This document shows, one piece after another, positions 2,935-61,357 of a stretch of 64,000 nt of DNA (its first letter is position 1; the number at the start of each line of letters is the position of its first letter). The notes beneath the pieces were generated by a model that was not told the origin of the DNA, made no database searches, and was given only the letters and a program-made list of their open reading frames with translations. The DNA is from Parcubacteria group bacterium (GTDB lineage: Bacteria > Patescibacteriota > Minisyncoccia > Moranbacterales > UBA11712), in NCBI GenBank assembly GCA_041659065.1, contig JBAZYY010000001.1, forward strand, positions 163,124-227,123, given 5' to 3'. The position numbers were made by a program, and so were the translations under genes.

Positions 2935-2988
2935 AAGTATATTGAAGCGTTTTGAAAATCATTCAGTATTCTAGAATACTGAATGATT

Positions 2989-7446: not shown

Positions 7447-9918
7447 CTAATCTAATACATCTCGGATGTTAAGCGCAAGCCGGCTGCCTTTTTGGATTTC
7501 ACCGCTGATTATTTTTTTCACTATCCTATCTCCGATCCGGTCTTGAATAAACCGGTCAATTGATCTCGCGCCGAATTTTTTATCATAGCCTTTTTCCACG
7601 ATAAATTTAGGGAATTCCGGATTGAAAATGACGTCGATATTCTCAACATTTTTCAGATTTTCAGCATATTTAATCAGCAGATGCTTCGCAACTTCAATAA
7701 TCTCAGCCTGCGTGAGCGGCGAAAAAAATATTACTCCTTCAAAGCGATTCAGAAATTCCGGCTTGAATATCCCTTTTTCTATGACATAATTTATAACTTC
7801 TTCCCTGACTTTGTCCGGTTCGGTATCTTTTTCAATCGCAGCCTTAATAATATCCGAAGCCGCGTTAGAGGTGGCTATTATTATTTCATTTTTAAAACTG
7901 ATTTTTTTCCCGAAAGCATCGGTCAACCATCCTTCGTCAAGAACCTGTAAAAATAAACTGAGAATATCCGGGTGAGCCTTTTCAACCTCATCGAGGAGAA
8001 GAAGAGAATAGGGATTTTCCTTCACTTTGTTGGTTAGTTGGCCCGAAAATCCCGATTCCGGAGATCCCAAGAGGCGGTTGATCGATTCTTGCCTTTGAAA
8101 TTCACTCATATCTAGCCGGATCATCCTTTTTTCATCGCCAAAATATGCCTCCGCGAGAGCTTTGGCGGATTCGGTTTTTCCCACCCCGGTAGGACCCAGA
8201 AAGAGAAAGCTTCCCAGTGGTTTATTGGCGTTTGCCATGCCGGTCCGCGCCCTCCGGATAGTTTCCGCAATTTGCTTGATCGCGAATTCTTGGCCGATAA
8301 CTCTTTGGTGAAGAACTTTTTCCATGTCAATCAGTCTGTCTTTTTCACCTTCGGTTATCTCGCCAACTGGGATTTTATATTTTTTCGAAACAACTTCATC
8401 CACCGTTTCCGGAAGAATGTACTTTTCATTTGAAATATGGCTCCAATAAAGAAGGACTTCCTCCAAAAGGTCAAGCGCTTTTTCAGGAAAAGGCGAATCG
8501 CTGATATATTTTTCACAGGATCTCACAATTTCTCTGAGAGCTTGATAGGTGAATATTACTCCGTCTTTTTCGAGCTCTTCTAGCTTTCTAAAGAGCACGT
8601 CTAGAGTTTCTTTCGCGCTCATTTCTTCAATCTGTACTTTTTCGAAATATTTAAGCACCTGCTCATGGCTTTCAATGTCCCCGTGGTAATTTTCCGGCGT
8701 AGAAAGTCCTATAATTTGAAAGTTAGGGTAAGCTAGAAATTCAGACAGCACTGCGGATATATTTTCTCCGGCATTTTTGGGATCTTTCTTGAGATAGCGA
8801 TCTATATTTTCAATAACCAGGATAATATTTCCGGCATAAGTCGCTTCAAAAAAAACTTTTCTGAGGATTTGTTCGATTTCCTGTTGGTGCGTGACGCCGG
8901 ATACAACCTCCCCGATATTAAGCACCAGCACTCTCTTTGTGCCGACCGCTGAATATATGCGATGTTCCCTGATCCTTTTGGCCAGATGATGAGCTAGCGA
9001 CATTTTTCCCGTCCCGGCTTCTCCAATCAACAAAATACTGTTCTGTGACGGCCTTGTCAGGATTAATTCCAGCATCTCAATATCCTGATACCTGCCTTTC
9101 TCATCATCATCCTTATAATCAGTAAAGTCTCCTTTGGACAAATCAGAAGAATACTTATCCAAATTTACTGTGTATGCGAATGTCCAGTCTGCCCCGATTG
9201 GGCGTTTGGCAAATAAATTTTCCCTTGACCAAAATCTTTTTTTAAGCAGCCTTTTGTTTTCCCGCTCCGACTCCCACGCTATTATTTTTTGAAATTCTTC
9301 AGCAGTAACTTCGTAACGTTTAAGATTATCGGACGTTGGGCCGGTCTTTTCAATAAAAAGAATGCCGGGATCGTCTTTTTCAACTCCAATCCTGTTCCAG
9401 ACTCTCTTGAACCATTCCTTTTTTAGATACTGCTTGAAGCTATCCGCGCCTTCGTCTTCCTTTGAATGGAAAAAAGCTTTTATGGAGATAATAAAAAGAA
9501 TGGCCGAAACTGCCAAAAAAACTCCGGCCGTAGCCGACAAGTACAGCGTCTTTGAGTAATAGGCCACGGCCAAAACAATACTTACAATCAAGACAAATGG
9601 GAGCAGCAACCATATAACAAGAATAATTACTCCAAAAACTAAAACTAGAAGCACTGCAATCAATCCAAAAATTGCCGTGAAAAGCCTCACAATTGCTCCC
9701 AGAAAACGCGTAATGAGATTTTCAAAAGCCGATTGGAGAAAAAGTATCGGATGTAATCCCCGCTCACCCACTCTCGAAATATCCCTTTTCCATGGCGAAA
9801 AAAGAGTCAGAAGCATTCTTGAAACGCCAAAATACCACCAAAAAAATGCCAGATAGTTCCTCCAGATTTCAAAAAATTTTTTCGTACCCTTCGAATAGTG
9901 CCAAAAAAAGAAATTCAT
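7447..9918 (-). CDS. membrane-anchored ClpA/ClpB-family AAA+ ATPase (N-terminal polytopic TM domain, degenerate D1, canonical D2)
   Basis: 823 aa. The first ~150 aa are strongly hydrophobic with several predicted TM helices. D1 has LLIGEAGTGKMSLAHHLAKRI, an atypical Walker A. D2 has LFLGPTGVGKTESAKALAEAYF and LLLLDEVEKAHPDILSLFLQVLDEG plus a ClpB D2-small-like C-terminus. Confidence 0.7.
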   Translation of the reverse strand: MNFFFWHYSKGTKKFFEIWRNYLAFFWWYFGVSRMLLTLFSPWKRDISRVGERGLHPILFLQSAFENLITRFLGAIVRLFTAIFGLIAVLLVLVFGVIILVIWLLLPFVLIVSIVLAVAYYSKTLYLSATAGVFLAVSAILFIISIKAFFHSKEDEGADSFKQYLKKEWFKRVWNRIGVEKDDPGILFIEKTGPTSDNLKRYEVTAEEFQKIIAWESERENKRLLKKRFWSRENLFAKRPIGADWTFAYTVNLDKYSSDLSKGDFTDYKDDDEKGRYQDIEMLELILTRPSQNSILLIGEAGTGKMSLAHHLAKRIREHRIYSAVGTKRVLVLNIGEVVSGVTHQQEIEQILRKVFFEATYAGNIILVIENIDRYLKKDPKNAGENISAVLSEFLAYPNFQIIGLSTPENYHGDIESHEQVLKYFEKVQIEEMSAKETLDVLFRKLEELEKDGVIFTYQALREIVRSCEKYISDSPFPEKALDLLEEVLLYWSHISNEKYILPETVDEVVSKKYKIPVGEITEGEKDRLIDMEKVLHQRVIGQEFAIKQIAETIRRARTGMANANKPLGSFLFLGPTGVGKTESAKALAEAYFGDEKRMIRLDMSEFQRQESINRLLGSPESGFSGQLTNKVKENPYSLLLLDEVEKAHPDILSLFLQVLDEGWLTDAFGKKISFKNEIIIATSNAASDIIKAAIEKDTEPDKVREEVINYVIEKGIFKPEFLNRFEGVIFFSPLTQAEIIEVAKHLLIKYAENLKNVENIDVIFNPEFPKFIVEKGYDKKFGARSIDRFIQDRIGDRIVKKIISGEIQKGSRLALNIRDVLD

Positions 9919-10000: not shown

Positions 10001-10169
10001 AAATTTTCTATTTCCCAACATCCGATGCTGAGAAGCGGCTAATTTTTACTTATAAATGGCTTCCAACTTTTTCGTCTGCTCCGAAAGCGCATCAAGTTTA
10101 GCGAATATTGATTTTTGCTTTGATACGGGTTTTCCTAGTATTGAATATTGGGAGGGGTTAATTACCCTG

Positions 10170-10218
10170 ATTCCTAAAGTTCGAAATTAGGATTGGTTTT
10201 CCTAACATTAAATGTTAG
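10170..10218. repeat. hairpin repeat pair (H1-like ttcctaaagttcgaaattagga plus H2 cctaacattaaatgttag)
   Basis: Inverted repeats are visible directly. Both families recur at eight intergenic sites in 10.1-14.1 kb. Confidence 0.6.
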
Positions 10219-10273
10219 AAACGGTTAGAGGGGCCAGAGGTGAATGCCCAAAAATCAAAACTCCTTTTATGGT

Positions 10274-11449
10274 TTATCTTTTCTCTAAAATATCATTAAG
10301 CGGTTTATATATATACCAGTACCCATCATGACGAGGCGGTGCATTTTTTAATACTGACAAGCCCTTCCTCGCATGATCTTTCATTATATCAATATTAGTT
10401 TTATTTATGCGCAACCCTAGTAATTCAAGCGACCGTCCAAGTCTATCGAGCTCATAATTGAAATCAGATTCTGCAGTTCTCGAGTGTAAAAGTTTTTCAA
10501 GATTACCTATTATTTCCTCAAATCTTTTTTCCCAATAAGTAGTTTCTTTTTCATAAAATATATTAATAAACTCATCCCTTAAATTTGTAATGATTTTTTC
10601 TCGCATTGCAAACTGTTCAACACTAAGGGGCACATCAGATTTGACATTACTATACTTGCCAAAGTCAAGGTTCTCAATCCGATTCTTTCCATGAAATATC
10701 GCATATGCGATGTGATTCGCAATAATATGCCTATCAAAATTATTTCCACCGATAATTGAGAACGCAACATTAAACTTTTTATCCCTATCTCCTTTTTTAA
10801 CATTTTCTAATGCATAAAATATTCCTTCGAATGATTTGTTTATTGTTGCTCTAGAACTAATGTACTCTGTAACATATAAAAAACCATTTTCGATTTTATT
10901 TTCTATTAACAAATTACTCACCACACTTTTCACGCCAGAACTGTCAAGGTTGTGATGCTTATGATCATGACCAATATCGAGTGAAACAAGTTCTGCTAAT
11001 TTTTCATTTTTTGTTTCATAGATTTTATTTATCGCCTTATGTATTATTTCCGCAGGCAATCGACCACTGCTATCTTCTGAAAAAACTACATCATAAGCAT
11101 GCGCATTAACTGCATCACGCATTTGTGGTACCATTTTTTCAAATGCACTCATCATTATATCACTGAGAAAATTAATCTCTGCATTTGGTGTTTTCCAATT
11201 TTCATGAAAGATTCTCGCCTCGGTTTCAGCCAATTCAATGGCAGTAACCTTGGGAAGGTTGAAAATTTTAAACAGAATACCCCTTTTCTTGTTTTTTAAT
11301 TTTGCCAATTCTTCCCATTCAGACCAAGATTCTAAAACTTCACGTCTTATAAAACCATTTTCAAGATTAACGAAATTAGCACGCTCGTCGCTTGGCAAAT
11401 CCTCAACTTTTTTATATTCAGCATTAAATGGATTAAATTTTTCTGACAT
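10274..11449 (-). CDS. hypothetical protein (island cassette gene, 391 aa)
   Basis: Long ORF whose ATG lies 28 nt downstream of the X promoter module. No family recognised. Contains a His-rich patch (SLDIGHDHKHHNLD). Confidence 0.55.
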   Translation of the reverse strand: MSEKFNPFNAEYKKVEDLPSDERANFVNLENGFIRREVLESWSEWEELAKLKNKKRGILFKIFNLPKVTAIELAETEARIFHENWKTPNAEINFLSDIMMSAFEKMVPQMRDAVNAHAYDVVFSEDSSGRLPAEIIHKAINKIYETKNEKLAELVSLDIGHDHKHHNLDSSGVKSVVSNLLIENKIENGFLYVTEYISSRATINKSFEGIFYALENVKKGDRDKKFNVAFSIIGGNNFDRHIIANHIAYAIFHGKNRIENLDFGKYSNVKSDVPLSVEQFAMREKIITNLRDEFINIFYEKETTYWEKRFEEIIGNLEKLLHSRTAESDFNYELDRLGRSLELLGLRINKTNIDIMKDHARKGLSVLKNAPPRHDGYWYIYKPLNDILEKR

Positions 11450-11476
11450 ACCCTCGTATTTTCGATTAATTATTTT

Positions 11477-11509
11477 CCCCTGCCGGAATTACGTAATCAG
11501 TTACGTAAC
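11477..11509 (-). promoter_or_regulatory. conserved promoter/operator module X: tandem TTACGTAA palindromes then CCGGC(A/G)GGGG, ~25-28 nt upstream of the cassette start codon
   Basis: The minus strand reads TTACGTAACTGATTACGTAATTCCGGCAGGGGAAAATAATTA. This fits a -35-like TTACGT, a 17-18 nt GC-rich spacer and a -10-like A/T hexamer, leaving a very short leader. Confidence 0.5.
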
Positions 11510-11517
11510 AAATTTTA

Positions 11518-11547
11518 TTCCTAAAGTCGAACTTTAGGAACGGTCAG
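11518..11547. repeat. H1 hairpin repeat ttcctaaagtcgaactttaggaa followed by cggtcag
   Basis: Perfect 10-bp arms (ttcctaaagt / actttaggaa) around cga. Identical copies lie at 13166-13188 and 13349-13371. Confidence 0.65.
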
Positions 11548-11944
11548 TTTTTCTTTCGAGAGACGGCGGATCGAGCGGGCGAAAGCTTGCTGATTGATTT
11601 TTCGCCATTCAGCCTTGATCAACCTTAGATTCCTATAGTACTGCCGGGGATCCCGGGAAAACCCCAAAGCGACGCCTCCCATAAACGCTAGCAATATTTT
11701 CTTTTTCACCGACCCTATCCTGTACATAAATATATTTTAGCATCAATATACGGCCGTGTCTAAAAACTGAATTGGAGCTGGAGAGTATAAATGTGGGTAT
11801 AAATTATAAATATTGAGCAAGGAAATATTCAACAGAATATAGCTTTAAGATACGGCCGTGGGTAAATGCTGGGTTGGGGAAAAAAGATGAAGGAGGTCGA
11901 ATGAAGTGCGAGCGAGAAAGTATTGCTGCTATTTTTCAATCCAT

Positions 11945-11980
11945 CCCCCGCCGGAATTACGTAATTGGTTACGTAATTAT
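11945..11980 (-). promoter_or_regulatory. X module copy (cccccgccggaattacgtaattggttacgtaattat)
   Basis: Same tandem TTACGTAA motif. No ORF starts at the usual 25-28 nt, so this cassette is probably degenerate. Confidence 0.4.
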
Positions 11981-11985
11981 CTTTA

Positions 11986-12010
11986 CCCTAACATTCAATG
12001 TTGAGTTGGG
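11986..12010. repeat. H2 hairpin repeat (ccctaacattcaatgttgagttggg) immediately 3' of the stop codon at 12011
   Basis: The arms aacatt / aatgtt form a palindrome. The same family occurs at 10201-10218 and 13556-13656. Confidence 0.55.
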
Positions 12011-12562
12011 TTATTTTTTTAGCTTCTTTTTTTCTTCAACTTTCGGCCAGCTGGCGCCCCGAAGCTTAATTTGATCCTGTCTTTTCGCAACCCATTGTCT
12101 GTGCGCGTCAACATTATTCTCTTCCAGACTTGGATGCCTCCAAACTTGTTCTGGAGGAGGTATTTGCCCTTTTTTTATCAGCACATTTTCTTGATATTTC
12201 GCTTGTTGCTTTTTTCTTCTGCCTCCAATACTGAAATATCTTTTGGTTTCTTTTCTCCTTTTTGCTCGCTTGGCTATTCCCTGAAGGATTATCTCCTCGG
12301 GATTTTCAATATTGGATTCACTATCAACATATCTAAAAGTATGAGGATTATCTTCCGGCTCAGCAACCTTTCTAATATTTGGTTTCCCGCTGTCTTTTTT
12401 GAATTGCCGTTTTTTTACAGGAACCGTATCGCCTATTTTTTCCCGAACGCCCAGAGGCCCTCCAGATTCGACTCGCAAATCATCTTCAGTTTGGTGCGCC
12501 GATTCTCCGAAATTATTTTCCTTTAATTGATCCACGAGATCCGGTCTTTCGAGTTTTGGCAT
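12011..12562 (-). CDS. hypothetical highly basic protein (183 aa, K/R/E-rich, likely nucleic-acid-binding)
   Basis: The ORF's ATG lies 24 nt downstream of the X module at 12586-12621. Composition is low-complexity basic. Confidence 0.55.
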   Translation of the reverse strand: MPKLERPDLVDQLKENNFGESAHQTEDDLRVESGGPLGVREKIGDTVPVKKRQFKKDSGKPNIRKVAEPEDNPHTFRYVDSESNIENPEEIILQGIAKRAKRRKETKRYFSIGGRRKKQQAKYQENVLIKKGQIPPPEQVWRHPSLEENNVDAHRQWVAKRQDQIKLRGASWPKVEEKKKLKK

Positions 12563-12585
12563 ATATTATTCTTTATTTATTATCT

Positions 12586-12621
12586 CCCCCGCCGGAATTA
12601 CGCAATTAGTTGCGTAATTAT
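12586..12621 (-). promoter_or_regulatory. X module copy (cccccgccggaattacgcaattagttgcgtaattat)
   Basis: Minus strand reads TTGCGT, then 17 nt AATTCCGGCGGGGGAGA, then TAATAA, then 14 nt, then ATG. This is the best sigma70-like arrangement of the four copies. Confidence 0.5.
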
Positions 12622-12624
12622 TCT

Positions 12625-12645
12625 CGCTAAGGTTCAACCTTAGCG
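12625..12645. repeat. hairpin cgctaaggttcaaccttagcg (perfect 10-bp arms) overlapping the stop codon of the upstream cassette gene
   Basis: Revcomp of cgctaaggtt is aaccttagcg. The TAA of ORF 12640..13155 lies inside the 3' arm. Confidence 0.6.
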
Positions 12646-13155
12646 AAGCTCTAGTTTCTCAATTATTTTTTTAAATGCCCCATATCCTCTGTATGACTCA
12701 CCTGATATATATTCTCCACTTTCATCTTTATATTTTTTTATTTCGCCATTTTCTTTAATTTCCCTCAACTCTGAAATAATTTCCCAAAGCAAATTAACAA
12801 AATCTTTACCCAGATTCCGGTTATTAATGGCAAATTCAATAAAAACTTCGTCGCTGATTACCATTTTAAATGTTTCGAAGGATATTCCACTTATTCTTTC
12901 CTTATCAATTAATCTTTTATTATTATTAAACTCTAATAACAATGCCTTCTTGAGAATTTTATATTTATTTCCCCTTCTATAATTCTCTGCTTTTTCATTT
13001 AACTTAAATGCAACAAAAACACCAAGAAAAGTAGCGATTAAAACAAAAATGAATTGAGTAATATCTATTATTGTAATCAAGTTTAACTGATATAACAAAA
13101 TAACCAATAACAACACTAATAATATAAGGTATATAATAATTTTTTTGTTGCTCAT
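12640..13155 (-). CDS. hypothetical membrane protein (two N-terminal TM helices plus a soluble domain, 171 aa)
   Basis: Hydrophobic N-terminus IIIYLILLVLLLVILLY...FIFVLIATFLGVFVAF. No family recognised. Confidence 0.55.
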   Translation of the reverse strand: MSNKKIIIYLILLVLLLVILLYQLNLITIIDITQFIFVLIATFLGVFVAFKLNEKAENYRRGNKYKILKKALLLEFNNNKRLIDKERISGISFETFKMVISDEVFIEFAINNRNLGKDFVNLLWEIISELREIKENGEIKKYKDESGEYISGESYRGYGAFKKIIEKLELR

Positions 13156-13165
13156 AAATTTTTGA

Positions 13166-13188
13166 TTCCTAAAGTCGAACTTTAGGAA
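13166..13188. repeat. H1 hairpin repeat (ttcctaaagtcgaactttaggaa)
   Basis: Exact copy of the 11518-11540 element, 8 nt upstream of the start codon at 13155. Confidence 0.65.
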
Positions 13189-13279
13189 CGGTTAAGAGAA
13201 ATTGCAGTCTTGTCAAAAGCAAAGACTGGATTAGTATCCATTTCCTGTGGCGCTTTTTTGTCTTCGCGATCAAATGCCA
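13169..13279 (-). CDS. possible 36-aa basic peptide MAFDREAKKRHRKWILIQSLLLTRLQFLLTVPKVRL (cassette-positioned small ORF)
   Basis: The ATG lies 28 nt after the X module at 13308-13343, like the other cassette genes. The last 8 codons and the stop are supplied by the H1 hairpin. Confidence 0.3.
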   Translation of the reverse strand, partial: WHLIAKTKKRHRKWILIQSLLLTRLQFLLTVPKVRL

Positions 13280-13307
13280 TAAGATTAGAGATTTTTCTAA
13301 ATTATTA

Positions 13308-13343
13308 TCCCCCGCCGGAAATACGTATTTAAATACGTATTTA
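13308..13343 (-). promoter_or_regulatory. X module variant (cccccgccggaaatacgtatttaaatacgtatttat)
   Basis: Tandem ATACGTAT palindromes replace TTACGTAA. The CCGGCGGGGG and A/T-rich -10 region are conserved. Confidence 0.45.
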
Positions 13344-13348
13344 TTTTT

Positions 13349-13371
13349 ATTCCTAAAGTTCGACTTTAGGA
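13349..13371. repeat. H1 hairpin repeat (ttcctaaagttcgactttaggaa)
   Basis: Third H1 copy, followed by cggttaac. Confidence 0.6.
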
Positions 13372-13555
13372 ACGGTTAACTATTTTTTTTTGGCTTTGGC
13401 TTTCAGTTTTTTGAGGTGCGTGGCCGAATCACGGCAGGTGCAGTTTTTCGCGTGGCCACCGTGCCACTTTATTTTCTCCTCAAGAGTTGCATTTTTGGGC
13501 ATCTTGTTCTTCAAATGCCAGGTTTTGTTGATTTTCATCTTGTTTTATCGCTATT

Positions 13556-13656
13556 CTAACATTGAATGTGGGGTCGGGTTACCCTTGGACGGAAGTTTTG
13601 ACGAAAGCTCGGCTTTCGTCAGGTTTACCCCAACATTGAATGTTGGGTTGGGTTAT
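13556..13656. repeat. composite H2 element (two ctaacattgaatgtgggg-type palindromes flanking the hairpin gacgaaagctcggctttcgtc), a MITE-like insertion
   Basis: ctaacattgaatgtgggg ... gacgaaagc-tcg-gctttcgtc ... ccccaacattgaatgttgggttggg. The element supplies the last 22 codons and the stop of the truncated ATPase ORF. Confidence 0.5.
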
Positions 13657-13944
13657 TTCGATATTTTTATAACCGCTTGGGTCCCATTTATTATTTTTAA
13701 AAGCATAATTTTTACCATCTGTCATGATTTCAATACTCGGATTGTTATTTTGCCCAAGAGTTGATCTTTCTAATATATAAGTAGGATCGTTCCTCTCTAG
13801 AGATCTAAAGATTGCTGATAATGTAGTCTTTCCGCGACCATTCTCGCCAAATAGAACCGACATTTTTTTCAATTTCGTATCTCCTAGAGATTCATATTTT
13901 TCAAATCTTCCGACATGGAAGATTTTTATTACTTTTTCAATCAT
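13579..13944 (-). pseudogene. N-terminal fragment (~100 aa) of an ABC/SMC-type defence-associated ATPase (AAA_15/AAA_21-like), truncated by the H2 repeat element
   Basis: IFHVGRFEKYESL...MSVLFGENGRGKTTLSAIFRSL is a RecF/OLD/PrrC-type Walker A N-terminus; such proteins are >350 aa. Here the frame runs into repeat-derived sequence and stops after 121 aa. Confidence 0.55.
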
Positions 13945-16203: not shown

Positions 16204-16404
16204 TTTTTACTCCGATAATCGCGGACGGTCATAGAAGGGATTACTTATTTATCCTACATAATTGCCTTTTATAAAGCAAATATCATCAGTTATCCACAAT
16301 TTAGTTGAAATATTTTTCGAATTATGCAAGTATTATAAGTACCAAGACCTGTATTCCGAACTATCACCGGATGGTGGTGTGGCTGGGACAACCAGTCTAG
16401 GAAC

Positions 16405-16440
16405 GTGGTCGGAGATAGCCCTTCGGGGCTGTTTTTTGTT
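16405..16440 (+). terminator. plus-strand rho-independent terminator-like hairpin (agccc-ttcg-gggct then gttttttg)
   Basis: A GC stem followed by a T-run on the plus strand only. It lies between divergent/convergent minus-strand genes. Confidence 0.4.
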
Positions 16441-17789: not shown

Positions 17790-18503
17790 ATGGAAAAAAA
17801 ATCATTAGAGGGATTTCCAGAACAATTTAAGCAGAATATTGAGGATGTCGATCAGCAACGACACGAATACGAAGAGGAAATGACAGCGACTCGCTTTGAC
17901 GCAGAGAAAGATGCTGCTGTTTTAGCAGAATTAGCCAATGAATTGGCAAAAAGGGAAGGGGGAGATGTTGACAAAAAAATAGAAGCCATGGATATATTAA
18001 AAACAGAAGCCGAGAAGATGGACGGATGGAGGGAGCAAGATTACTCTAGAAAAGTAGATGATCTAATAAGCCAAATCGGCTTAAAAAAACAGCAGCCTTT
18101 TCAAGTGGAGAAAGGCGGAAAAGAGGTTTATGGAGATGTTTATTATCAGTGGCCGAATAATAGTAGCTCTTTATCAAGTGCTATTGAAAAAGTTCGGAAG
18201 GATATTCCGAAACTATTTGAAAATGCCTGGGTTATTGAACGTTTCGTAGAGCGTACAAAAAAATTTGAAATACTAAGATATATTCCCGAAAAGCTTAGGC
18301 ATGACAAAACTTTTTTGCATGGGATGATAAAAAAACAAGGTATTGAAGCTCTCAAATATTTACCTTACGGAGTGAAGAACGTAAATTTTCTGCTAGAAGT
18401 CGTAAACAAAAATCCAAACTTAAAACTTGCCGATTTGAAAGAAAATATTCCGGGTGAAATCTATTCAGTATTGGAAAAGAATTTGAAAACCAAAAGCGAC
18501 TAA
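17790..18503 (+). CDS. hypothetical protein (237 aa, acidic N-terminus)
   Basis: The ORF is preceded by a TTGCAC-17-TATTAT promoter-like sequence at ~17728-17756. No family recognised. Confidence 0.5.
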   Translation: MEKKSLEGFPEQFKQNIEDVDQQRHEYEEEMTATRFDAEKDAAVLAELANELAKREGGDVDKKIEAMDILKTEAEKMDGWREQDYSRKVDDLISQIGLKKQQPFQVEKGGKEVYGDVYYQWPNNSSSLSSAIEKVRKDIPKLFENAWVIERFVERTKKFEILRYIPEKLRHDKTFLHGMIKKQGIEALKYLPYGVKNVNFLLEVVNKNPNLKLADLKENIPGEIYSVLEKNLKTKSD

Positions 18504-23704: not shown

Positions 23705-23734
23705 CTTAACTTCTCGTTAAGGAGGTGTTTTACC

Positions 23735-23971
23735 GTGTTGATATATTCAAGGAAGCGGATTTTTAGCCCCAAGGAGCTTGCAAATAGGGCGGCATTACTG
23801 GCAGCCCGAAATCGCAAGCGCGCAAATCGGGCAGCCCGACCGAAACTCACGCCAGCAGAACTTGCCGCTCAGGCAAGAGCTGCGAGGATACTGATCCTGG
23901 AGGCGCAAGAGGAGAGGACACGTGATCTCGAATTTCGCCAACGGGGGCGGTACGCCTACCGGGGGTGGTAA
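23735..23971 (+). CDS. small Arg/Ala-rich basic protein (78 aa, GTG start) in a GC-rich island
   Basis: A strong SD (AAGGAGG at 23719-23725) lies 9 nt before the GTG. High GC is explained by the Ala/Arg codons. A large hairpin follows at 23989-24038. It could alternatively be a structured RNA. Confidence 0.4.
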   Translation: MLIYSRKRIFSPKELANRAALLAARNRKRANRAARPKLTPAELAAQARAARILILEAQEERTRDLEFRQRGRYAYRGW

Positions 23972-24079
23972 AACCATTCTATATTTATCCCGACGAACGT
24001 TAGACTGTTAAATGCAGCTAAAGAATACGTTCGTCGGGCACATTCAAAAGCAGTTTTTAGAAAGACTGTTTTTGTTTAT

Positions 24080-35778: not shown

Positions 35779-35920
35779 GCTCGTTTCACTCGAGTTAAAA
35801 AGTTAAAAGATGTCATGCCATAGGCAGATCAGCCTTCGGCTGAAAAAGTTTAAAATTAAACTGAAGGGTTGAATTAAATATCAAAACTGTTAATTTTGAA
35901 CTTTTAACTTTAAACTATCT

Positions 35921-36034
35921 TATCCTTGCCTTTGCTTATGTTTTGGGTTAGTGCAAATAACATAAATCTTTCCTTTCCTTCTGATAATTTTGCACTGAAT
36001 ACAAATCTTTTTTACTGATGCTCTTACTTTCATT
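35921..36034 (-). CDS. rpmJ: 50S ribosomal protein L36
   Basis: Minus-strand translation gives [37 protein letters not shown], a C4 zinc-ribbon L36. It is absent from the ORF track because it is under 60 aa. Confidence 0.85.
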
Positions 36035-36157
36035 CTATTCTTATCTTAATATTCGCTTATCTAATTAATGAGCCGGCAGATCCAAAAATGCACCTCTAAT
36101 CCTGCCCACGAAAAATTGATAAAATCATTAGCGGGATAAATATTCCAGATTTTAGAT

Positions 36158-36376
36158 TCACATCCGCTGAACTATTCTGCCTTTGGTCAAATCATACGGA
36201 CTCATTTCAACTAGAACTTTATCTCCAGGGAGCAGTCTAATATAGTTGACTCTCATTCTCCCGGATATATGCGCTAGAATTTCATGCCCATTTTCAAGTT
36301 CCACTTTAAAAGTGGTGCTAGGCAGAGTTTCTGTTACTTTGCCTTCCAGTCTTATTATTTCCTTCTCCTTTGCCAT
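36158..36376 (-). CDS. infA: translation initiation factor IF-1
   Basis: [59 protein letters not shown] matches IF-1. It ends in a TGA stop. Confidence 0.9.
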
Positions 36377-36573
36377 TTATAATTTTTTATTGAATACAAA
36401 GCAAAAAAGGGGCTACCGCCGAAAGCCCTAATTATCCAGAAGGCGGCACATCCAAACATTCCAATTTCTTGTAAGGCACTCCTTTTTCAGCTTCATTATT
36501 GCTGAAATTATTTTAGCTGTAATTGAAAATATTGTCAACAGTCCGGGGGTGATTTATCCGCCGAAGGAGGCTC

Positions 36574-54436: not shown

Positions 54437-54832
54437 AGTTTTTTGCTTAGATAATTAAATTAATGGCTTATATAATTAACAAAATAGAATAGCAGGGTGG
54501 CTATTTTTTGTCAATAGCCTGACCCACTAATAATTATGGCTTATATAAAGCATAATTAGAATATTCTCATATACTTAAAACCAAAAATAATAGTTTTTAC
54601 TAAATTATATTATGCAAATACTACCATCCTACCAAGCGTGGTAGTAATTGCATTAAATGCTCTAACTAAGGATTTTTGCTGACTTAAAGGTATATTTAAG
54701 CCTTTGTAGGGATTTTAAGTAAAAGAAAAACCTCATAGTCTCGCTCTATATCCATCCTCCGTTTTCGGATTAGGTTATCGATTGAAACTATGAGGCTTAG
54801 TTGAGGTCAGCGGCCTCACCCGGAATCCGGGG

Positions 54833-55519: not shown

Positions 55520-56622
55520 GAGAAATTCTCCTTCTTCTCAATCAGTGTGGGTTTAAGTTCTTCGATACCCTCTGGGCACGAACCCATTGGGCCAAACACC
55601 GGCCTTAAAAACACCTGCCCAGACGCTGACTCTGCCCAAAACAACGTTTGTTGGATAGGCTTTTCTACTCGTTCAGACTGAGCAGTGTGCGGATTAATTC
55701 GCTCCAGACAGTGACCTAGATCGTTCCAATCCCCATCTGGCGTTTTCTGTGGCCATTGATAATAGCCACTTTGAACTTCTATATCACTGACCGTAGATTG
55801 CTCGGCAGTATTACCTGCTATATTTTTACCCGCGAACTTTTGGGGTGCTGACGCGGGATTCTTTACATCGGGGGTGACTGCTGGTAAATCATATTTCGAG
55901 TCCGAGCGGAAATTTTTGGGTGCTGACGCCACGGACTTCTGAATATCGGGGGTGACTGCTGATGAATCATATCGGGAGCCTTCAGGCCGAACTTTTGGGG
56001 TGTTGACGGCCAAAGGCTTCTGGGTCTTATTTGTCTCGGGGACGACTGCTGGGGTGAAGCTATGCGGCGCAATAGCCGCTATTTTCGAAGCAGGCTGACC
56101 CTGCTTTTGGGCGCCGATAACCGGCGCAACAGGGCTGCTGCTGAAAGAAGGCTTATTGATAACGTTCGAATCCGCAAACTTTTTGGATGATGACGCGGAC
56201 TGAACCTTCGGCGCATTCTTTTGCGCCTGGAAACCATTATGAAACGGGGGCGACTGCTGGTCATTCGTAGAGGTTAAACCTCTATTGACAGGAGTTTCAA
56301 CTTTTTTCGCCGTCGCAATTGGCACAGGCGCGGTAGCCATAGTGGGCTGAAAATTAAAGCCCGCCTTAGCCTTAAGGTTGCGAGAACGAGAAGAGTACTT
56401 CGATTTCGCCACGAACTTTTCCATCCGTTCGCGGTTAAAAACCGTCACTCTCTTCCCATTTTCTTTCCAGCTTGCCCAGATGAGGCCATCCTCACTGGAG
56501 TATTCGGCGATGTGATCCACACCGCCGATCTGGAAATTATACAACTTGGCCTCGGCCAATCCCGCGCTTGCTAAAAATATAGCGACGGCGGCCAGTGCCA
56601 GAAAACCTAGCAGCCTTTTCAT
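55516..56622 (-). CDS. hypothetical secreted protein with internal ~19-aa tandem repeats
   Basis: Signal peptide. The DNA carries tandem ~57-bp repeats at ~55840-56010, encoding S(K/R)YD(L/S)(P/S)AVTPD(V/I)...ASAP(Q/K)(K/N)F. Confidence 0.5.
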   Translation of the reverse strand: MKRLLGFLALAAVAIFLASAGLAEAKLYNFQIGGVDHIAEYSSEDGLIWASWKENGKRVTVFNRERMEKFVAKSKYSSRSRNLKAKAGFNFQPTMATAPVPIATAKKVETPVNRGLTSTNDQQSPPFHNGFQAQKNAPKVQSASSSKKFADSNVINKPSFSSSPVAPVIGAQKQGQPASKIAAIAPHSFTPAVVPETNKTQKPLAVNTPKVRPEGSRYDSSAVTPDIQKSVASAPKNFRSDSKYDLPAVTPDVKNPASAPQKFAGKNIAGNTAEQSTVSDIEVQSGYYQWPQKTPDGDWNDLGHCLERINPHTAQSERVEKPIQQTLFWAESASGQVFLRPVFGPMGSCPEGIEELKPTLIEKKENFS

Positions 56623-56986
56623 GGCCGCCTCCTTTTATCAGATTTTTACAGCATATATTAACGGCAAATTGCCGTTTATGAAGTTTTTAATGATCTCATT
56701 ATATTTTTGACCCTATTTAGGGTTAAATATATCCGCAATATAAAGCAAAAAAGGATATTCCGGGAATATTTAACACTAAATGGATTTTCCGCCGATAATT
56801 AGAGATTTTTTCGTTAATAGTTAGAACATTGCATACTAAACGAAAAATTTATGTTTGTCAAGTAATTTTCTGCCTTAAATAAAGCTAATTTTTTAGCATA
56901 TTTTACTTGTTAGCACGTTTTAAAATTGAATTTTAGAACTATTTTTGGATTGACCTGCAAATATATCACCCTGTCATTATTAACCT

Positions 56987-58393
56987 CTACGGGATAATTT
57001 GCTTATCCCCTTTTAGCGGTTCTTTGCTTTCCAAAACGCTGCCATCGGCTTTTTTTATCTTAATTTCCAATGGGACTTCACCTGATCCGGATTGTTTTTG
57101 AATAAGCAGGCTGTATGGTTTTGATTTGAAATCATCCGGAAGATCATAGTCAAGCGTAATTTTCTGACTGTCTCCGATCGGGACATAAACCAGCATTCCG
57201 AAAACTTTTTTCCCAAGTTCATTCGCGAATACCACATCTCCGATTTGTCCGCTGGCGGAGTTAAGCCGCGATCCATCCGGGGCATACACCCGCAGCCAAT
57301 CCCGATAGTTTGCCGTCATCCAATCGGCTGTACGGCAAGTATGCTCATAGTTAATCTCGAGATGCGCCTTGGGCGTCTCGCCCGCCAGGTCGACTTCATA
57401 TCGCATTTCCCTCTTGATGCAAATGTCGCTCTTCAGTGAATTTAGATTCGCATCCACCGCCATGAGATAATCTTCTTTGCTTTCCGCCGTTCGCCCGCCC
57501 CAATTGATGTTTTGAATTTCCGTGTCCAAATTATTATCCTTGAAAAACATCTGAATATCTTTGGCTTTAATGTGTTCTTCGATAATCTTGGCGAGCTCCA
57601 CTTTCTGCGGCAGGGAAAAATTCCGGATTTTTTCCTCAAGAATTTTTGCGAGGTCTCCAAGAATATTTTTTCTCTCCCCTTTTTCTATGCCTTGGTCGAG
57701 ATATCCTTTTTCAACCTGATATTCGAGCTGCAGTATTGCCGTTTCGTCATTGTATTCTCCGGGGTATCCGTTAATTTTGACCGGACCAGTGATGGCGAGC
57801 AGCGAATTCAAGACATCTGTGTTTATCGCGATAATGCCATCGAAGTTCTCGCCGCCTTGGCCCAGTTTATAAAAATATTCCGCCTTTTCGGCATTGGTGC
57901 GAAAATCCGGCGACCAGTTCGAATCGCGCAACTTCCACGCCTGAAGTTTCAGAATTTTCGTGAGCGGCTCGGGCGGAACCTCGGTATTTGGAATCCTCAC
58001 ATCAAAATTACCCGTGTCATGCACTTCGATATCCGAAATCCTGCCACGGTTAAGCTTGATAATGCCGAAAGATCCGATAAATCCGCCTCCCGGTCGAAGC
58101 TCCATGTTATTTTGAAAGAGAACCAAAAAAGTTTGTTCGCCTGAAAAGCCGCCAGCTTTTTGATAGAGATCCGCCGCGGTTTGAAGTTCCTTTTTGCGTT
58201 CGGTACTGATTGGAAATAATCGAATCAAAGTTTTTATTCCCTCAATATCCCTATTTTTTATCTCCAGAAAAGCAAACCAGGCGAAAAGTAAAACCGCCGA
58301 TGCCGCCCAAAACACGATCCAAAAAACCGGCCCTTGCCTGTTCCGAGCTTTTTGCAGACTTACTTTAGCGGATTTTTCCTCAATTTTCGCCAT
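56987..58393 (-). CDS. DUF4012 domain membrane protein
   Basis: N-terminal TM. ELRPGGGFIGSFG is the DUF4012 hallmark. Confidence 0.7.
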   Translation of the reverse strand: MAKIEEKSAKVSLQKARNRQGPVFWIVFWAASAVLLFAWFAFLEIKNRDIEGIKTLIRLFPISTERKKELQTAADLYQKAGGFSGEQTFLVLFQNNMELRPGGGFIGSFGIIKLNRGRISDIEVHDTGNFDVRIPNTEVPPEPLTKILKLQAWKLRDSNWSPDFRTNAEKAEYFYKLGQGGENFDGIIAINTDVLNSLLAITGPVKINGYPGEYNDETAILQLEYQVEKGYLDQGIEKGERKNILGDLAKILEEKIRNFSLPQKVELAKIIEEHIKAKDIQMFFKDNNLDTEIQNINWGGRTAESKEDYLMAVDANLNSLKSDICIKREMRYEVDLAGETPKAHLEINYEHTCRTADWMTANYRDWLRVYAPDGSRLNSASGQIGDVVFANELGKKVFGMLVYVPIGDSQKITLDYDLPDDFKSKPYSLLIQKQSGSGEVPLEIKIKKADGSVLESKEPLKGDKQIIP

Positions 58394-58493
58394 AAAATTC
58401 CTTGAATTTGACTCTTAAGGCTATCAAAATCATATACGCTTGTCAACAAGATTTAATTGACGCCGGCGCCTGCATTTGTTATTTATAATATGC

Positions 58494-58684
58494 GCTTATG
58501 AGCGGAGTTTGAGAAATTGCAAGGTTGAGGGGTGTCGTTCGGTCCGGGAGCGCCAACGACACGACAGCTTGAGCCATCTGGGGGAGACTGGAATACAGTT
58601 CCATTTTGGCCCGCTGTCTCTCAACCCCGCATACCTCTCCTGCTTATCAACCTCTCTCCCGATAGGCAGTCTCTGCTCATAAGC
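58494..58684. ncRNA. candidate structured RNA element (~190 nt) closed by a 14-bp long-range helix; identity and strand unknown
   Basis: 58494-58507 pairs with 58671-58684 (one G-U). Nested stems are 58532-58539/58555-58562, 58582-58588/58616-58622 and hairpin 58589-58603. GC is well above background. Confidence 0.3.
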
Positions 58685-60022
58685 TGTTTCTTATTGCACG
58701 CGAGGGTTATCCACAGGAATAAATTTGACAGAGTGGATAATTTTGCAATTTTAAGGTATTATTTGGATAAAGGACTTGTCTAGCAAACCTAGCAAAAACT
58801 GTTATTTTAAAATTTCTTCGTAAATCTCAAACTCCTCACGATCCAATTCGCAAATGCAGACAGGTAGCATTCTGCGCCTGATCAGCTGGGGAATACACTA
58901 TAAGGGAGGTGGTGGCCAGAGGAAAGTTTGGCAAGGAATCGGCTATATTTTTGGAACCCCGCTTGCGGGAGCAGTTCGGTTGGCTTTGGCCATTAATCAC
59001 CACTCAATATCGTCATCGAGCGATCCCTTGTCTGGTGTGCCCTAGGCACCCCTTCACTTTTTATAGCAATTGACCAAAATATTTCGGTCTTTTTTTATAC
59101 CCCAAAATACAACAATACAAATTCGCTTGCAGTTATCTAGCATATTGTAAATGAATTTTCTAAAACATAAACGCTTAAAAATCTAAATCCGTCCCTTTTC
59201 TTTACATAGTAAACCAGCTCAATCAAATCCTACAGTATACTGTAATACTGTAGGATTTGTTAATCGCATTTTAGAATGTTTTTTTCTTTTTCAAGTCAGA
59301 GTTTAAGTTCTTAAACTAAGACTTGACAAACTCGGCGTAATAATTATTATTAAGCCAATTCTTCTTTCTAGGTATGCTTCTGCATGTGGATCCGGGCGCC
59401 TCGGGGAGTGGAGCGCACTGGGCGCTTAACTTGCCAAAGCTACAAATTAGTTATAAGGATAAGTAAGATCGCTCCCCGAGGCAAACTCTTCAAAATTATG
59501 GGCCCTGCAAGTCAAACCTGCCCCGGTCCAGCCAGATCCTTTCCAGAGCTAGCTGGTGTGCTTGCAGGGCTCCACCCGTTCTTTAGCAAGTACAATTTGC
59601 CGAGGCATTGATATCCGACACCACCATCCTCCTTTCAAGATTTGGTAGGTAAGTCGCATATTTCTTGCCTCGGCAATCCTCAATCCCGCGCGCTAATCCT
59701 AGCGCTTTTCTTTTATGTAAATCTTTTCTATACTTTAAAAGGAGGTTTCGCAAAGATTTCGCAGAGCTGACTTCGGGGGAGGTATCAGCATAGCGAAAAA
59801 AATTTCGGGAAACCGGATCGGAAACCTCTAGGGCTCGGGATAATACCCACTATCGACTGAAAGCCTTACCCACTTTCATACAACCCGATAATGGCATTAG
59901 AACGAGCCCGTCCATTTTTTTTACTCGCCTTGATTTTATTGAGACGATTTTTTTATACAAAAAAGATGCCGCGAAGCGGCACCCTAAACTTTTCACTTTT
60001 AATTTTTAACTTTAAACTTTTT

Positions 60023-61357
60023 TTATTCATACCGAAGCGCGTCCAAAGCGTGGATTCGAGAGGCGCGCCGCGCCGGCATCAGCCCGGTCACAAGCCCCAA
60101 GAAGAAGATAAAAATTACAATCGCCACCACGAAATAAGAAGGTATAAAAATGAAGTTTAGGGTCGAGTGTCCGGATCTGATTGCTAGTAGGTTGAAGATA
60201 ACATTAATCACGTATGCCGTAGCGTAACCGCCCATGAAACCGATAGCACCGCCCAGAAAACTTATTATCGCCGCTTCGAACACGAACATTTTGAAGATGT
60301 CTTTTCTTTTCGCGCCAAGCGCTTTGAGAATTCCCACTTCTTTTGTGCGTTGCAGAAGCGAAACTGAGAGCGTATTGAGCATGCCCATGGCGGAAATGGA
60401 CATAATAATCGTTCCTAAAACGATCATAGCAACACGAATGATGGTAAAAAACGAGTTGATGTCATTCACAAGATCCACTACGCTCTCCGTGACAAAGCCC
60501 ATCTGCTCGACTTGCGCCCTTATTTCACCGATATTTTTGACGTCAATCTTGAGTTTTCCGGATTGAGCGCCGGATATTCCTAAATTTTTCTGAAGATAAG
60601 GAAGCGGCAAGTATAGGTAGGTACTTTGCTCGTCCGCGATCACTCCCACCACCTTAAGCTTTCCTTTTTCCGAGGTCGTGTCTTTTTCCACGTTGGCCGC
60701 TATATCCGAAGACAGAACCATGTCGAATTCCAACTCTTTGCCCAACGCGTCCGCGGGATTCGCAAATCCCAAAAATTTCGCGAGTCTGGCTGAAATGGCG
60801 GCGGTACTGCCCTCCGGATCCCAATCCGCCGCATTGCCATTGGCAAATTTCACGTTCGCCATCTCAAGATATTCTTGATTGGTGCCATAGATAATGCTGT
60901 CAGTCTGCGAGTCAGCCCAATAAACTTTGCCGCCGGTATTCATCAAGGCGGCGATTTTTTCCACTCCCGGGATAGCTTTCAGCTTTTCAATGCTTTCGTC
61001 ATTGATGACTATAAAATTCTCGAGGTTGCTATTGCTTATGTCAACCACATCAATGGAATTGTTTTTCGTGACCTCGCTCACCACTAATTTCTGGACTCCA
61101 AATCCCAGGCAAATCAAAATGGTGATTATTCCGATCCCAATGGCCACTCCGCCAATCGTGAGGAAGGAACGAAGCTTGCTTGAACGCAGATTTCGATATC
61201 CTATATAAACCAGCATCCCCAGCCGCATTTTCGAAAGCTTTGCTCTCTTTTTTTTGACTTCGGTTTTTTTCGGATCTATTTCCCCGTTTTTTGGATTTTT
61301 TGTGGGAATATCGGCAATTTTAGATTTTTTTGAGAATGGATTTAGATTCATTTTCAA
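60023..61357 (-). CDS. ABC transporter permease, FtsX/MacB family
   Basis: N-terminal TM, a large periplasmic domain and a C-terminal FtsX-like 3-TM bundle. It is immediately downstream of the ABC ATPase. Confidence 0.75.
   Translation of the reverse strand: MKMNLNPFSKKSKIADIPTKNPKNGEIDPKKTEVKKKRAKLSKMRLGMLVYIGYRNLRSSKLRSFLTIGGVAIGIGIITILICLGFGVQKLVVSEVTKNNSIDVVDISNSNLENFIVINDESIEKLKAIPGVEKIAALMNTGGKVYWADSQTDSIIYGTNQEYLEMANVKFANGNAADWDPEGSTAAISARLAKFLGFANPADALGKELEFDMVLSSDIAANVEKDTTSEKGKLKVVGVIADEQSTYLYLPLPYLQKNLGISGAQSGKLKIDVKNIGEIRAQVEQMGFVTESVVDLVNDINSFFTIIRVAMIVLGTIIMSISAMGMLNTLSVSLLQRTKEVGILKALGAKRKDIFKMFVFEAAIISFLGGAIGFMGGYATAYVINVIFNLLAIRSGHSTLNFIFIPSYFVVAIVIFIFFLGLVTGLMPARRASRIHALDALRYE

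Follow-up and report, generated by a model that had tools for sequence, protein, structure and literature searches.

Does the longest gene-free gap in this stretch of DNA encode structured RNAs and, if so, from which strand? The gap (positions 58394-60022; 1629 nt), hereafter the island, lies in the genome of a Candidatus Moranbacteria member; these CPR/Patescibacteria have tiny genomes with very few annotated regulatory RNAs. Within the window, by which we mean the whole 64-kb stretch that was analysed, the second-longest gap has 1279 nt and contains two tRNAs. The island is flanked by a DUF4012 envelope gene and by a MacB/FtsX ABC-transporter operon, whose genes were identified as FtsX/MacB and an ABC ATPase, and all flanking genes are on the minus strand. 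A sequence-only reading had described a 1.6-kb gene-free region here, which is borne out: the longest ORF in the gap has 89 aa and mostly overlaps the FtsX gene, and the full-length Logan contig L081, which is identical and spans the entire gap, has zero gene calls inside it. The features listed by that reading are all present, at or within a few bases of where it had placed them (Table 1). The island has a GC content of 0.42, with peaks of 0.60, compared to 0.26-0.41 for most other intergenic regions of the window. The explanation that we put first, and hold tentatively, is that this is a lineage-specific non-coding island in an envelope-gene neighbourhood, and that at least one structured small RNA (unit C) is transcribed independently from the plus strand of its right half.

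Table 1. Features of the island and its borders, in window coordinates.
Feature	Position	Strand	Details
Probable proximal promoter of the DUF4012 gene	58418-58446	-	TTGACA (58446-58441), 17-nt spacer, TAGCCT (58423-58418); read from sequence
Block 1, multi-branched fold	58494-58684		191 nt, closed by a 14-bp helix; from folding and helix search
Three DnaA-box-like 9-mers	58707-58770		TTATCCACA (+), TTATCCACT (-), TTATCCAAA (-)
Block 2, GC-rich, without significant structure	58850-59045	+	coincides with 63-aa ORF 58854-59045
Terminator-like hairpin	59072-59096	+	GACCAAAATATTTCGGTC then T7; one-directional
Perfect palindrome	59224-59259		15-nt arms (59224-59238/59245-59259), 6-nt loop
Imperfect dyad, candidate operator	59287-59330		CAAGTCAGAGTTTAAG / CTTAAACTAAGACTTG; 21-nt arms, 86% complementary
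Near-consensus sigma-70 promoter	59323-59350	+	TTGACA-N16-TATTAT, 11/12; predicted transcription start near 59357
Unit C, candidate ~355-nt non-coding RNA	59357-59714	+	SL1-SL3 (74-85 nt each), terminator
SL1, three-way junction	59398-59482	+	perfect 11-bp helix 59398-59408/59472-59482
SL2	59500-59573	+	helix GGCCCTGCAAG/CTTGCAGGGC at 59501-59511/59561-59570
SL3	59597-59676	+	perfect 11-bp helix 59597-59607/59666-59676; 16-nt apical loop UCCUCCUUUCAAGAUU
Unit C intrinsic terminator	59690-59714	+	GCGCUAAUCCUAGCGC (59690-59705) then UUUUCUUUU
Unit D, two adjacent hairpin domains and T8	59741-59922		D1 59741-59830, D2 59831-59909, T8 59915-59922
Intrinsic terminator of the ABC-transporter operon	59963-59985	-	10-bp stem, UUCG loop, U-tract

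Folding calculations, expressed as z-scores against 100-200 shuffles per segment, show that much of the island is more stable than chance. In particular, no shuffle was as stable as block 1 (z of -5.0 on the plus strand and -6.6 on the minus strand; 0/200 shuffles), positions 59355-59715 (-6.0 and -5.2), positions 59735-59925 (-3.9 and -4.0), or the AT-rich stretch 59100-59360 that holds two palindromes (-6.1). Across 150-nt segments, the mean z is -1.6 inside the region versus -0.36 elsewhere (Mann-Whitney p = 0.001); moreover, the region has four perfect inverted repeats whose arms reach 10 nt or more, versus 0.34 +/- 0.59 in 300 shuffles. The GC-rich blocks had been called stem-rich, which is true of block 1 and of the stem-loops at 59398-59676, both beating their shuffles, but not of block 2 (58845-59055), whose z-scores of -0.5 and -0.1 are on par with them. 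Strong hairpins and repeat families are also present in other intergenic regions of the window.

Unit C has the clearest transcription signals. Its promoter is one of 5 sites matching the sigma-70 consensus at 11/12 positions or better in the 64-kb window, versus 1.1 +/- 1.0 in shuffles; the other four are all intergenic and lie upstream of genes on their coding (minus) strand, which suggests that the genome makes use of this consensus. About 340 nt downstream of the promoter, on the same strand and again in intergenic DNA, stands a good intrinsic terminator. A generic terminator scan did no better than chance (25 found versus 22 expected in 20 kb), and therefore only the quality and position of individual sites are used here. 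The plus-strand fold of unit C (z of -6.0) has a centroid structure near its minimum free energy structure, and GCCTCGG/CCGAGGC occurs four times inside the unit. Both helices earlier noticed in a third GC-rich block are present, as parts of SL1 and SL2; the outline likeness of that block to a small SRP RNA found no SRP match in the Rfam scans. The unit's ORF (59384-59611) has a shadow-ORF-like codon-usage score of -0.095 and lacks a Shine-Dalgarno (SD) sequence. Unit C thus displays what generically marks a small-RNA gene, a promoter and a terminator on the same strand around a stable non-coding segment.

According to the proposed mechanism, the promoter, overlapped by the dyad as a candidate operator, would drive a transcript of about 355 nt that folds into the three stem-loops and stops at the intrinsic terminator. 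Unit C would most likely be transcribed independently, as a highly structured plus-strand small RNA. As to its function, our guess is a trans-acting regulatory or protein-binding RNA; more speculatively, the exposed CCUCCU loop of SL3 might pair with Shine-Dalgarno sequences, and the motif in this loop may be a chance occurrence, given three copies of GGAGG on the same strand as well. The earlier proposal of a candidate ncRNA cluster is plausible for part of the island: several blocks are far stabler than chance and unit C has its own promoter and terminator, but block 2 is unstructured.

Block 1 and unit D may each, on one strand or the other, be a further small-RNA gene or a structured part of a neighbouring transcript. 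The 14-nt long-range helix said to close block 1 is found at 58494-58507/58671-58684, with 13 Watson-Crick pairs and one G-U pair. On the plus strand, block 1 is preceded at a distance of 5 nt by a perfect TATAAT (58484-58489) and followed by a U-rich tail; a good -35 element is absent. Unit D is similarly preceded by a weak TATACT -10 element (59729-59734), its good -35 element also missing, and it contains the anticipated helix GGGCTCG/CGAGCCC (59831-59837/59903-59909, in D2) ahead of the T8 run. GNRA-type tetraloops appear on the plus strand in block 1 (GGGA) and in D1 (GAAA).

The folding energies do not agree on a strand. SL1 and D1 (-34.1 kcal/mol on the plus strand versus -29.1 kcal/mol on the minus strand) prefer the plus strand, whereas block 1, SL2, SL3 and D2 (-33.4 kcal/mol on the minus strand versus -24.2 kcal/mol on the plus strand; four G-U pairs) prefer the minus strand. 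The G-U pairs total 15 versus 18, and in block 1 they number 5 (plus) versus 7 (minus). Such mixed preferences in energies and G-U counts would also be an outcome of neutral decay of DNA palindromes.

The minus-strand preference of block 1, SL2, SL3 and D2 raises a different explanation, which we consider improbable: the blocks would lie within long minus-strand transcripts, for example an ~830-nt DUF4012 leader initiated from 59263-59234 or RNAs derived from the 3′ UTR of the ABC operon, and would act in cis or bind a protein through GGA/GGAGG-rich loops. A minus-strand promoter-like site (10/12; 59263-59234) does overlap the perfect palindrome, there is no minus-strand terminator from 59230 to the start of the DUF4012 gene, and the flanking genes all run in this direction. 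However, the DUF4012 gene probably has a promoter of its own close by, some 25 nt 5′ of the ATG at 58393, and relatives conserve a counterpart (TTGACAAACG...TAAATT) immediately 5′ of the start codon, which implies a short leader; no long leader is therefore needed, and the island is not required as one. Further, the strong terminator at 59985-59963, which forms the right-hand border of the island, would stop the ABC operon ahead of unit D, and the plus strand has the best promoter as well as the one-directional terminators (59072-59096, 59690-59714 and the T8 at 59915).

Under the favoured plus-strand reading, the AT-rich centre (59100-59360), with its two palindromes and divergent promoter-like sites, would have a control function. 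The imperfect dyad overlaps the -35 hexamer of the plus-strand promoter. The other palindrome had been reported as perfect, with 13-bp arms at 59225-59258; perfect it is, but its arms are longer (15 nt) and enclose a 6-nt loop. A few AT-rich palindromes in intergenic DNA form a small family with it: one, 79% similar, lies at window positions 2956-2993, where it separates pheT from a gene for a class I tRNA synthetase, and a similar one in the related locus L006 (~18040) also lies between two genes. A LexA-like operator was considered for the palindrome at 59224-59259 and rejected, as the sister copy sits between tRNA-synthetase genes and not SOS genes. Matches to the palindrome core in IMG/VR are an unrelated TACTGTATA repeat.

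The left half of the island contains the pair of DnaA boxes and the third site that had been pointed out: a perfect box at 58707-58715 (plus strand) and boxes with one mismatch at 58732-58740 and 58762-58770 (both minus strand). Together, the first and the second make up an inverted repeat of 8 bp, TTATCCAC-N17-GTGGATAA. Three boxes in 64 nt is unusual, as none of 150 shuffles had at least three within 70 nt, and their consensus is that of the genuine origins of CPR relatives; these points favour a replication origin, or a DnaA-controlled element centred on 58707-58770. However, GC skew is negative throughout the window, with no sign switch near 58.7 kb; every 2-kb segment between 29 kb and 64 kb has a negative value, the cumulative curve declines monotonically over 58-60 kb, and minus-strand genes lie on either side. 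Neither dnaA nor dnaN is found in the 64-kb window by tblastn with CPR DnaA and DnaN proteins, taken from the relative L067 and confirmed by Pfam. As a positive control, the dnaA-dnaN spacers of L067, L068, L061 and other CPR relatives have 5-10 boxes with the same consensus, compared to three here, two of them imperfect, and such 9-mers are in excess across the window generally (25 versus 14 expected). The skew and box analysis that had been called for, run on the window, thus gives no origin signature at 58.7 kb: the suggestion of an origin-like region fails, oriC is effectively excluded, and origin or DnaA-controlled element together have a very low probability. The boxes overlap weak promoter-like sites (9/12) on both strands, and are predicted to act as a small binding-site cluster over them; a minor DnaA-binding or regulatory site at 58707-58770 is possible.

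Block 2, the one GC-rich block without RNA structure, is where a protein-coding explanation has most to offer. One or more small-protein genes, such as the 63-aa ORF 58854-59045 encoding a glycine-rich hydrophobic peptide beside an ABC exporter, would fit the coincidence of plus-strand ORFs of 63-75 aa with GC-rich blocks, although GC-rich DNA should be poor in stop codons by chance anyway. By codon usage, ORF 58854-59045 scores higher than any other in the region (0.086), on the border between real genes and shadow ORFs; the scores of these ORFs nevertheless fall inside the shadow-ORF distribution and below ~95% of real-gene segments. It received a partial gene call from the JGI pipeline on one contig, but is uncalled on the full-length Logan contig. 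Relatives do have a conserved 54-aa Cys-rich ORF with an SD sequence at the equivalent position; in contrast, no SD lies upstream of the island's ORFs, where a scan for SD-plus-start pairs found no convincing case, and tblastx of the island against relatives gave zero matches. The island has no Pfam match, ORF 58854-59045 included, and this ORF has no homologue among 5.8 billion proteins. Small-protein genes are accordingly given little credence. Block 2 had also been likened to the P4 motif of RNase P; the sequence in question (GAGGAAAGTTTGG, 58919-58931) is present, yet the Rfam 15 scans found no RNase P match. Near the terminator-like hairpin 59072-59096 is a weaker hairpin at 59034-59050.

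Known RNA families do not account for the island. The Rfam check proposed by the sequence-only reading was run: Rfam 15 at gathering score, over the whole window, gives no match in the region, and a permissive scan of 58300-60100 has a best E-value of 0.46, with all matches 20-190 bits under threshold. For example, Esr41 aligned to the terminator hairpin 59072-59096 only. RNase P, SRP, 6S, tmRNA, riboswitches and group I/II introns have no match in the region in either scan, ARAGORN likewise finds no tmRNA, and Rfam scans of seven related loci yielded nothing relevant. In Patescibacteria, the anticodon loop of a tRNA gene can be interrupted by a group I intron (PMC13011429), and a tRNA of this type was considered and rejected: with introns as long as 600 nt permitted, ARAGORN predicted no gene within 58300-60100, and RF00028 has no match there even at E up to 10. 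Some divergent group I introns escape both tools (PMC13011429), and the exclusion is thus strong, not absolute.

Homology searches for the island recovered only itself. About 80 related loci, reached via the DUF4012 protein, were negative by blastn, nhmmer and tblastx; the additional relative L084 has no island homologue; and the only other copies (L081-L083 and L088) are all 100% identical. Exact-protein contig look-ups led to identical strains only, and the protein search found no relative between 66% and 100% identity. Single-sequence covariance models of block 1 and SL1 were negative in 0.9 Mb of related loci, the block 1 model with zero homologues. One metagenome pattern scan returned the same organism and unrelated high-GC hairpins only, and IMG/VR patterns, INPHARED phages and PLSDB plasmids were all negative for the island; unit C in particular has no homologue in the related loci, the metagenome pattern scan or the IMG/VR patterns. 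Neither the 64-kb window nor the related loci contain a further copy of the GC-rich blocks. At the same syntenic position, relatives have a variable gene-poor gap of 305 to >1800 nt with conserved non-coding pieces of its own, whose content is not shared with the window; a profile of their conserved gap block had no match in it.

These results bear most directly on the strongest competitor, which has a lower but appreciable probability: that the FtsX-DUF4012 junction is a hotspot of non-functional, fast-turnover spacer DNA, in which the hairpins are decaying inverted repeats (MITE-like or other palindromic insertions) accompanied by left-over promoter and terminator signals. The variable content of the syntenic gap, the orphan status of the island in every search, the strand-mixed G-U asymmetry that neutral palindrome decay predicts, the unstructured block 2, and the hairpins and repeat families elsewhere in the window all agree with it. 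However, 1.6 kb of junk, as the largest gap in 64 kb, would be unusual given how compact CPR genomes are. The folds are multi-branched with well-defined ensembles, and not simple long palindromes; no duplicate of any block turned up in the window or across 0.9 Mb of related loci; target-site duplications are not evident around block 1; and a leftover would be unlikely to combine an 11/12 promoter with a same-strand terminator. Counting against our preferred explanation are the island's orphan status in all homology searches, the inconsistent strand preference, the chance-level generic terminator scan, and the want of a good -35 element at block 1 and unit D.

A bolder form of the RNA reading, which we think unlikely, is that the island encodes two or three new structured RNAs of one Moranbacteria lineage, namely block 1 (~190 nt), unit C (~355 nt) and unit D (~180 nt), with palindrome-controlled divergent promoters beside envelope and ABC-transporter genes, and that related Moranbacteria carry unrelated but analogous conserved ncRNAs or micro-ORFs at this junction. 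If true, the FtsX-DUF4012 junction would be a hotspot of regulatory-RNA invention in CPR bacteria. The island would be a reasonable place to seek envelope-related riboregulators that are specific to this lineage. It is currently an orphan candidate, of practical use mainly for the mapping of metatranscriptome reads. The case is also cautionary, in that a few DnaA-like boxes in gene-free DNA do not make an origin.

Compared to known systems, the island has the TTATCCACA consensus of a bacterial oriC and two near-matches in non-coding DNA, but too few boxes, no dnaA/dnaN neighbour and no skew inversion, and the origins of L067 and L068 look quite different. As in MITE/REP-like repeats, units of 75-190 nt closed by perfect 10-14-bp inverted repeats are packed into one intergenic region, and the AT-rich palindrome recurs in the window and in L006; unlike such repeats, the GC-rich blocks lack a further copy in the window, the related loci and the scanned collections, and show no target-site duplication. 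Long GC-rich intergenic regions have reportedly been used to discover structured ncRNAs (the GC-IGR approach), with candidates said to be accepted only given covariation across homologues; the island resembles such candidates in its unusual length and in being richer in GC than most intergenic regions elsewhere in the window, but is without homologues for covariation. Independently transcribed small RNAs of bacteria include some that combine several stem-loops with a Rho-independent terminator, such as the RNAIII-type or RsaE-type RNAs of Staphylococcus, with C-rich loops. The predicted unit C differs from these in having no sequence or structural homology to any Rfam family; like them, it is intergenic, with its own sigma-70-type promoter and intrinsic terminator, several stable stem-loops, no coding potential, and an apical loop with CCUCCU for potential Shine-Dalgarno pairing.

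We tentatively read the 1629 nt gap at 58394-60022, the largest in the window, as a non-coding island that is specific to its lineage and carries one or more small-RNA genes. It lies in the genome of an uncultivated member of Candidatus Moranbacteria/Moraniibacteriota (Parcubacteria, CPR), whose genes in the window are nearly all on the minus strand. On the left is the gene of a DUF4012 protein, one of the envelope-associated families in CPR (PMC6744442), with a sortase and other surface-type genes farther out; on the right, beyond a MacB/FtsX permease, are an ABC ATPase and an fn3 protein. The sequence-only reading had described 1.6 kb free of genes, and this holds: there is no ORF longer than 89 aa, and no gene is called in the gap on an identical 13-kb contig.

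The gap appears to be non-coding: it has no Pfam match, no tblastx similarity to relatives and no meaningful ORF headed by an SD-plus-start pair, and the codon-usage scores of its ORFs are in the shadow-ORF range (-0.35 to 0.10), versus 0.25 ± 0.11 for pieces of real genes. The sole borderline case, a 63-aa ORF coincident with the unstructured GC-rich block 2 (58850-59045), has no homologue in a protein database search. Across the whole window, Rfam 15 matches only two tRNAs and one DUF3800-IX RNA, all outside the gap; a permissive scan of the gap region yielded a best E of 0.46, with every match terminator-like or spurious. Since these scans found nothing relevant, the proposed resemblance of the GAGGAAAGTTTGG motif to RNase P is unsupported, and the 59500-59573 hairpin, previously compared with SRP RNA, is not SRP domain IV and lies in a region with no Rfam match. 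Group I introns are reported to hide tRNA genes in Patescibacteria (PMC13011429); ARAGORN with introns allowed found no such tRNA in the gap, and this candidate is largely excluded.

The gap region is real and non-random, and its structure exceeds chance. Folding energies relative to shuffled sequence give z = -5.0 / -6.6 for block 1 (58494-58684), -6.0 / -5.2 for 59355-59715, about -4 for 59735-59925 and -6.1 for the AT-rich centre (59100-59360); block 2 is the exception among the blocks, with z near zero and no excess folding on both strands. Moreover, the region contains four inverted repeats that are perfect over arms of 10 nt or longer, versus 0.34 expected, and its folding differs from the remainder of the window (p = 0.001). 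Every helix, box and motif listed in the sequence-only reading is found; its palindrome (59224-59259) is better than stated there, the arms being perfect over 15 bp around a 6-nt loop. Similar AT-rich perfect palindromes, with the common half-site AAATC.T.CAGTAT, occupy short spacers between co-directional genes at window 2956-2993 (pheT and a class I tRNA synthetase) and ~18032-18075 of the related locus L006 (two ORFs); the three are either a small intergenic family or a shared operator.

The best-supported element of the gap is unit C (59357-59714), a promoter-to-terminator interval with three stem-loops (SL1 to SL3; 85, 74 and 80 nt). Five sites in the window match TTGACA-N16-18-TATAAT at 11 or more of 12 positions, versus 1.1 expected, and four of them are intergenic on the coding (minus) strand of genes downstream, which validates this consensus for the genome; the fifth precedes unit C. 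Elsewhere, a small gene or RNA that escaped annotation may be signalled by an 11/12 promoter at 36510-36538 (-), which falls in a 795-nt gap (35779-36573), ~730 nt ahead of the minus-strand gene that follows. In the unit C promoter, the -35 hexamer is overlapped by an imperfect dyad (59287-59330), and the perfect palindrome overlaps a minus-strand 10/12 promoter-like site, an arrangement by which the AT-rich centre looks like a divergent control region. Block 1 need not be the DUF4012 leader, because that gene has its own proximal promoter with a counterpart in relatives.

Coordinates of features in the window and in related loci
Feature	Location	Strand	Remark
DUF4012 protein gene	56987-58393	minus	left neighbour of gap
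DUF4012 gene's proximal promoter	58446-58418		conserved counterpart directly before start codon in relatives
Perfect TATAAT	5 nt before block 1	plus	
T7-tailed hairpin	59072-59096	plus	
Promoter, at least 11/12	59323-59350	plus	within gap
Intrinsic terminator, good	59690-59705	plus	UUUUCUUUU; ~340 nt downstream of 59323-59350 promoter
T8 run after D2	59915-59922	plus	
MacB/FtsX permease gene	60023-61357	minus	right neighbour of gap
DUF3800-IX RNA (RF02968)	16346-16414	plus	50.1 bits vs gathering score 36.8; sole non-tRNA Rfam match in window
~700-nt block after FtsX	relatives' gap		clade's own conserved piece
Conserved block, ~450-700 nt	L084 976-1657; L009 7849-8539; L004 3992-4618; L001 7276-7671		directly 3' of FtsX gene
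54-aa Cys/Thr-rich ORF (MPDVFYRASGQSQNLSYDTCIACAATRAKMMNTPGAGTCHSHIEDTDLCASTAA)	L084 3891-4055; aligned L006 ~9530-9700, L009 ~9300-9480	minus (L084)	strong SD
300-nt block, 67% GC	L006 9246-9545; L009 8992-9288		90% identity between two Moranbacteria
oriC-like cluster, 5-10 DnaA boxes	L067 1781-1940		adjoining dnaA, between dnaA and dnaN

Energies and G-U counts of the individual structured elements do not agree on a strand: they favour plus for SL1 and hairpin domain D1 (59741-59830) and minus for block 1, SL2, SL3 and D2 (59831-59909), with G-U totals of 15 versus 18. This mixed preference leaves some probability for a minus-strand reading. It is also what neutral decay of DNA palindromes would produce, which weakens the RNA interpretation somewhat.

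Structure is also found elsewhere in the window. A hairpin repeat family spans several intergenic regions at 10100-13700, with TTCCTAAAGTCGAACTTTAGGAACGGT-like hairpins at ~10170, 11518, 13166 and 13350 and CCGGAATTACGTAAT...ACGTAA palindromes at ~11484, 11955 and 13319; for intergenic 13156-13389 the folding z is -7.6. A further intergenic stretch, 23705-24079 (GC 0.50, peak 0.63), immediately follows the ribosomal protein L31 gene; it has significant plus-strand structure (z -4.6) and no Rfam match, making it a second candidate orphan structured RNA. Strong structure also occurs at 54437-54832 and 56251-56625, with z between -4 and -6.6 for one strand or for both; the latter segment falls inside a 368-aa ORF without a Pfam domain, or at its 5' end.

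Three other contigs with an identical DUF4012 protein, and the single metagenome contig matching block 3, each show 100% identity to the window. In a search of 5.8 billion proteins, the DUF4012 protein nearest after these has 66% identity, and the closest relatives (57-66%) are all Moranbacteria MAGs. These keep the order ABC, FtsX, gap, DUF4012 with gaps of 305 to >1800 nt, whose conserved pieces show no similarity to the window's gap. The main rival explanation, somewhat less probable than the small-RNA island, is a non-functional variable spacer. No match to the covariance models built for block 1 and SL1 turned up in 0.9 Mb of related loci, and phage, plasmid and IMG/VR searches for gap sequences were empty. 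Called genes cover little of the relatives' post-FtsX block (70-81% identity among them), which is not related to the gap of the window. Their 300-nt GC-rich block, in genomes of ~40% GC, has no ORF of at least 70 aa and no Rfam match. Further, the 54-aa ORF, divergent from the DUF4012 gene and near an ABC transporter in related Moranbacteria, is absent from the window; its product may be a peptide that is secreted or modified.

Overall, of the earlier proposal of an ncRNA cluster and/or origin-like region, the ncRNA half survives as a non-random structured island with at least one candidate small-RNA gene; the origin is rejected, and the RNase P and SRP resemblances are unsupported.

A replication origin in the gap was rejected: GC skew is negative throughout the window, with no sign change and no turn at 58.7 kb, no dnaA or dnaN gene was found in the window, and the DnaA-like cluster is too unlike CPR origins. 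This three-box cluster is statistically unusual (0/150 shuffles) but small; its first two boxes are arranged as an inverted repeat (TTATCCAC-N17-GTGGATAA) that overlies weak promoter-like sites, and the cluster is possibly a minor DnaA site or another regulator's site. The Moranbacteria loci yielded neither oriC-like box clusters nor dnaA genes. A positive control comes from some 20 CPR loci that are more distant and were retrieved through the DUF4012 protein; in these, the dnaA-adjacent spacer carries 5-10 TTATCCACA-type boxes; the genes flanking it in L067 are confirmed as dnaA and dnaN, and canonical oriC-like clusters also adjoin dnaA in L053, L056, L061, L063, L065, L068, L072, L074 and L080, these Microgenomates-type genomes having them 6-8 kb from the DUF4012 homologue. 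Origins in these loci carry 5-10 boxes beside dnaA, and the three-box site of the gap is unlike them.
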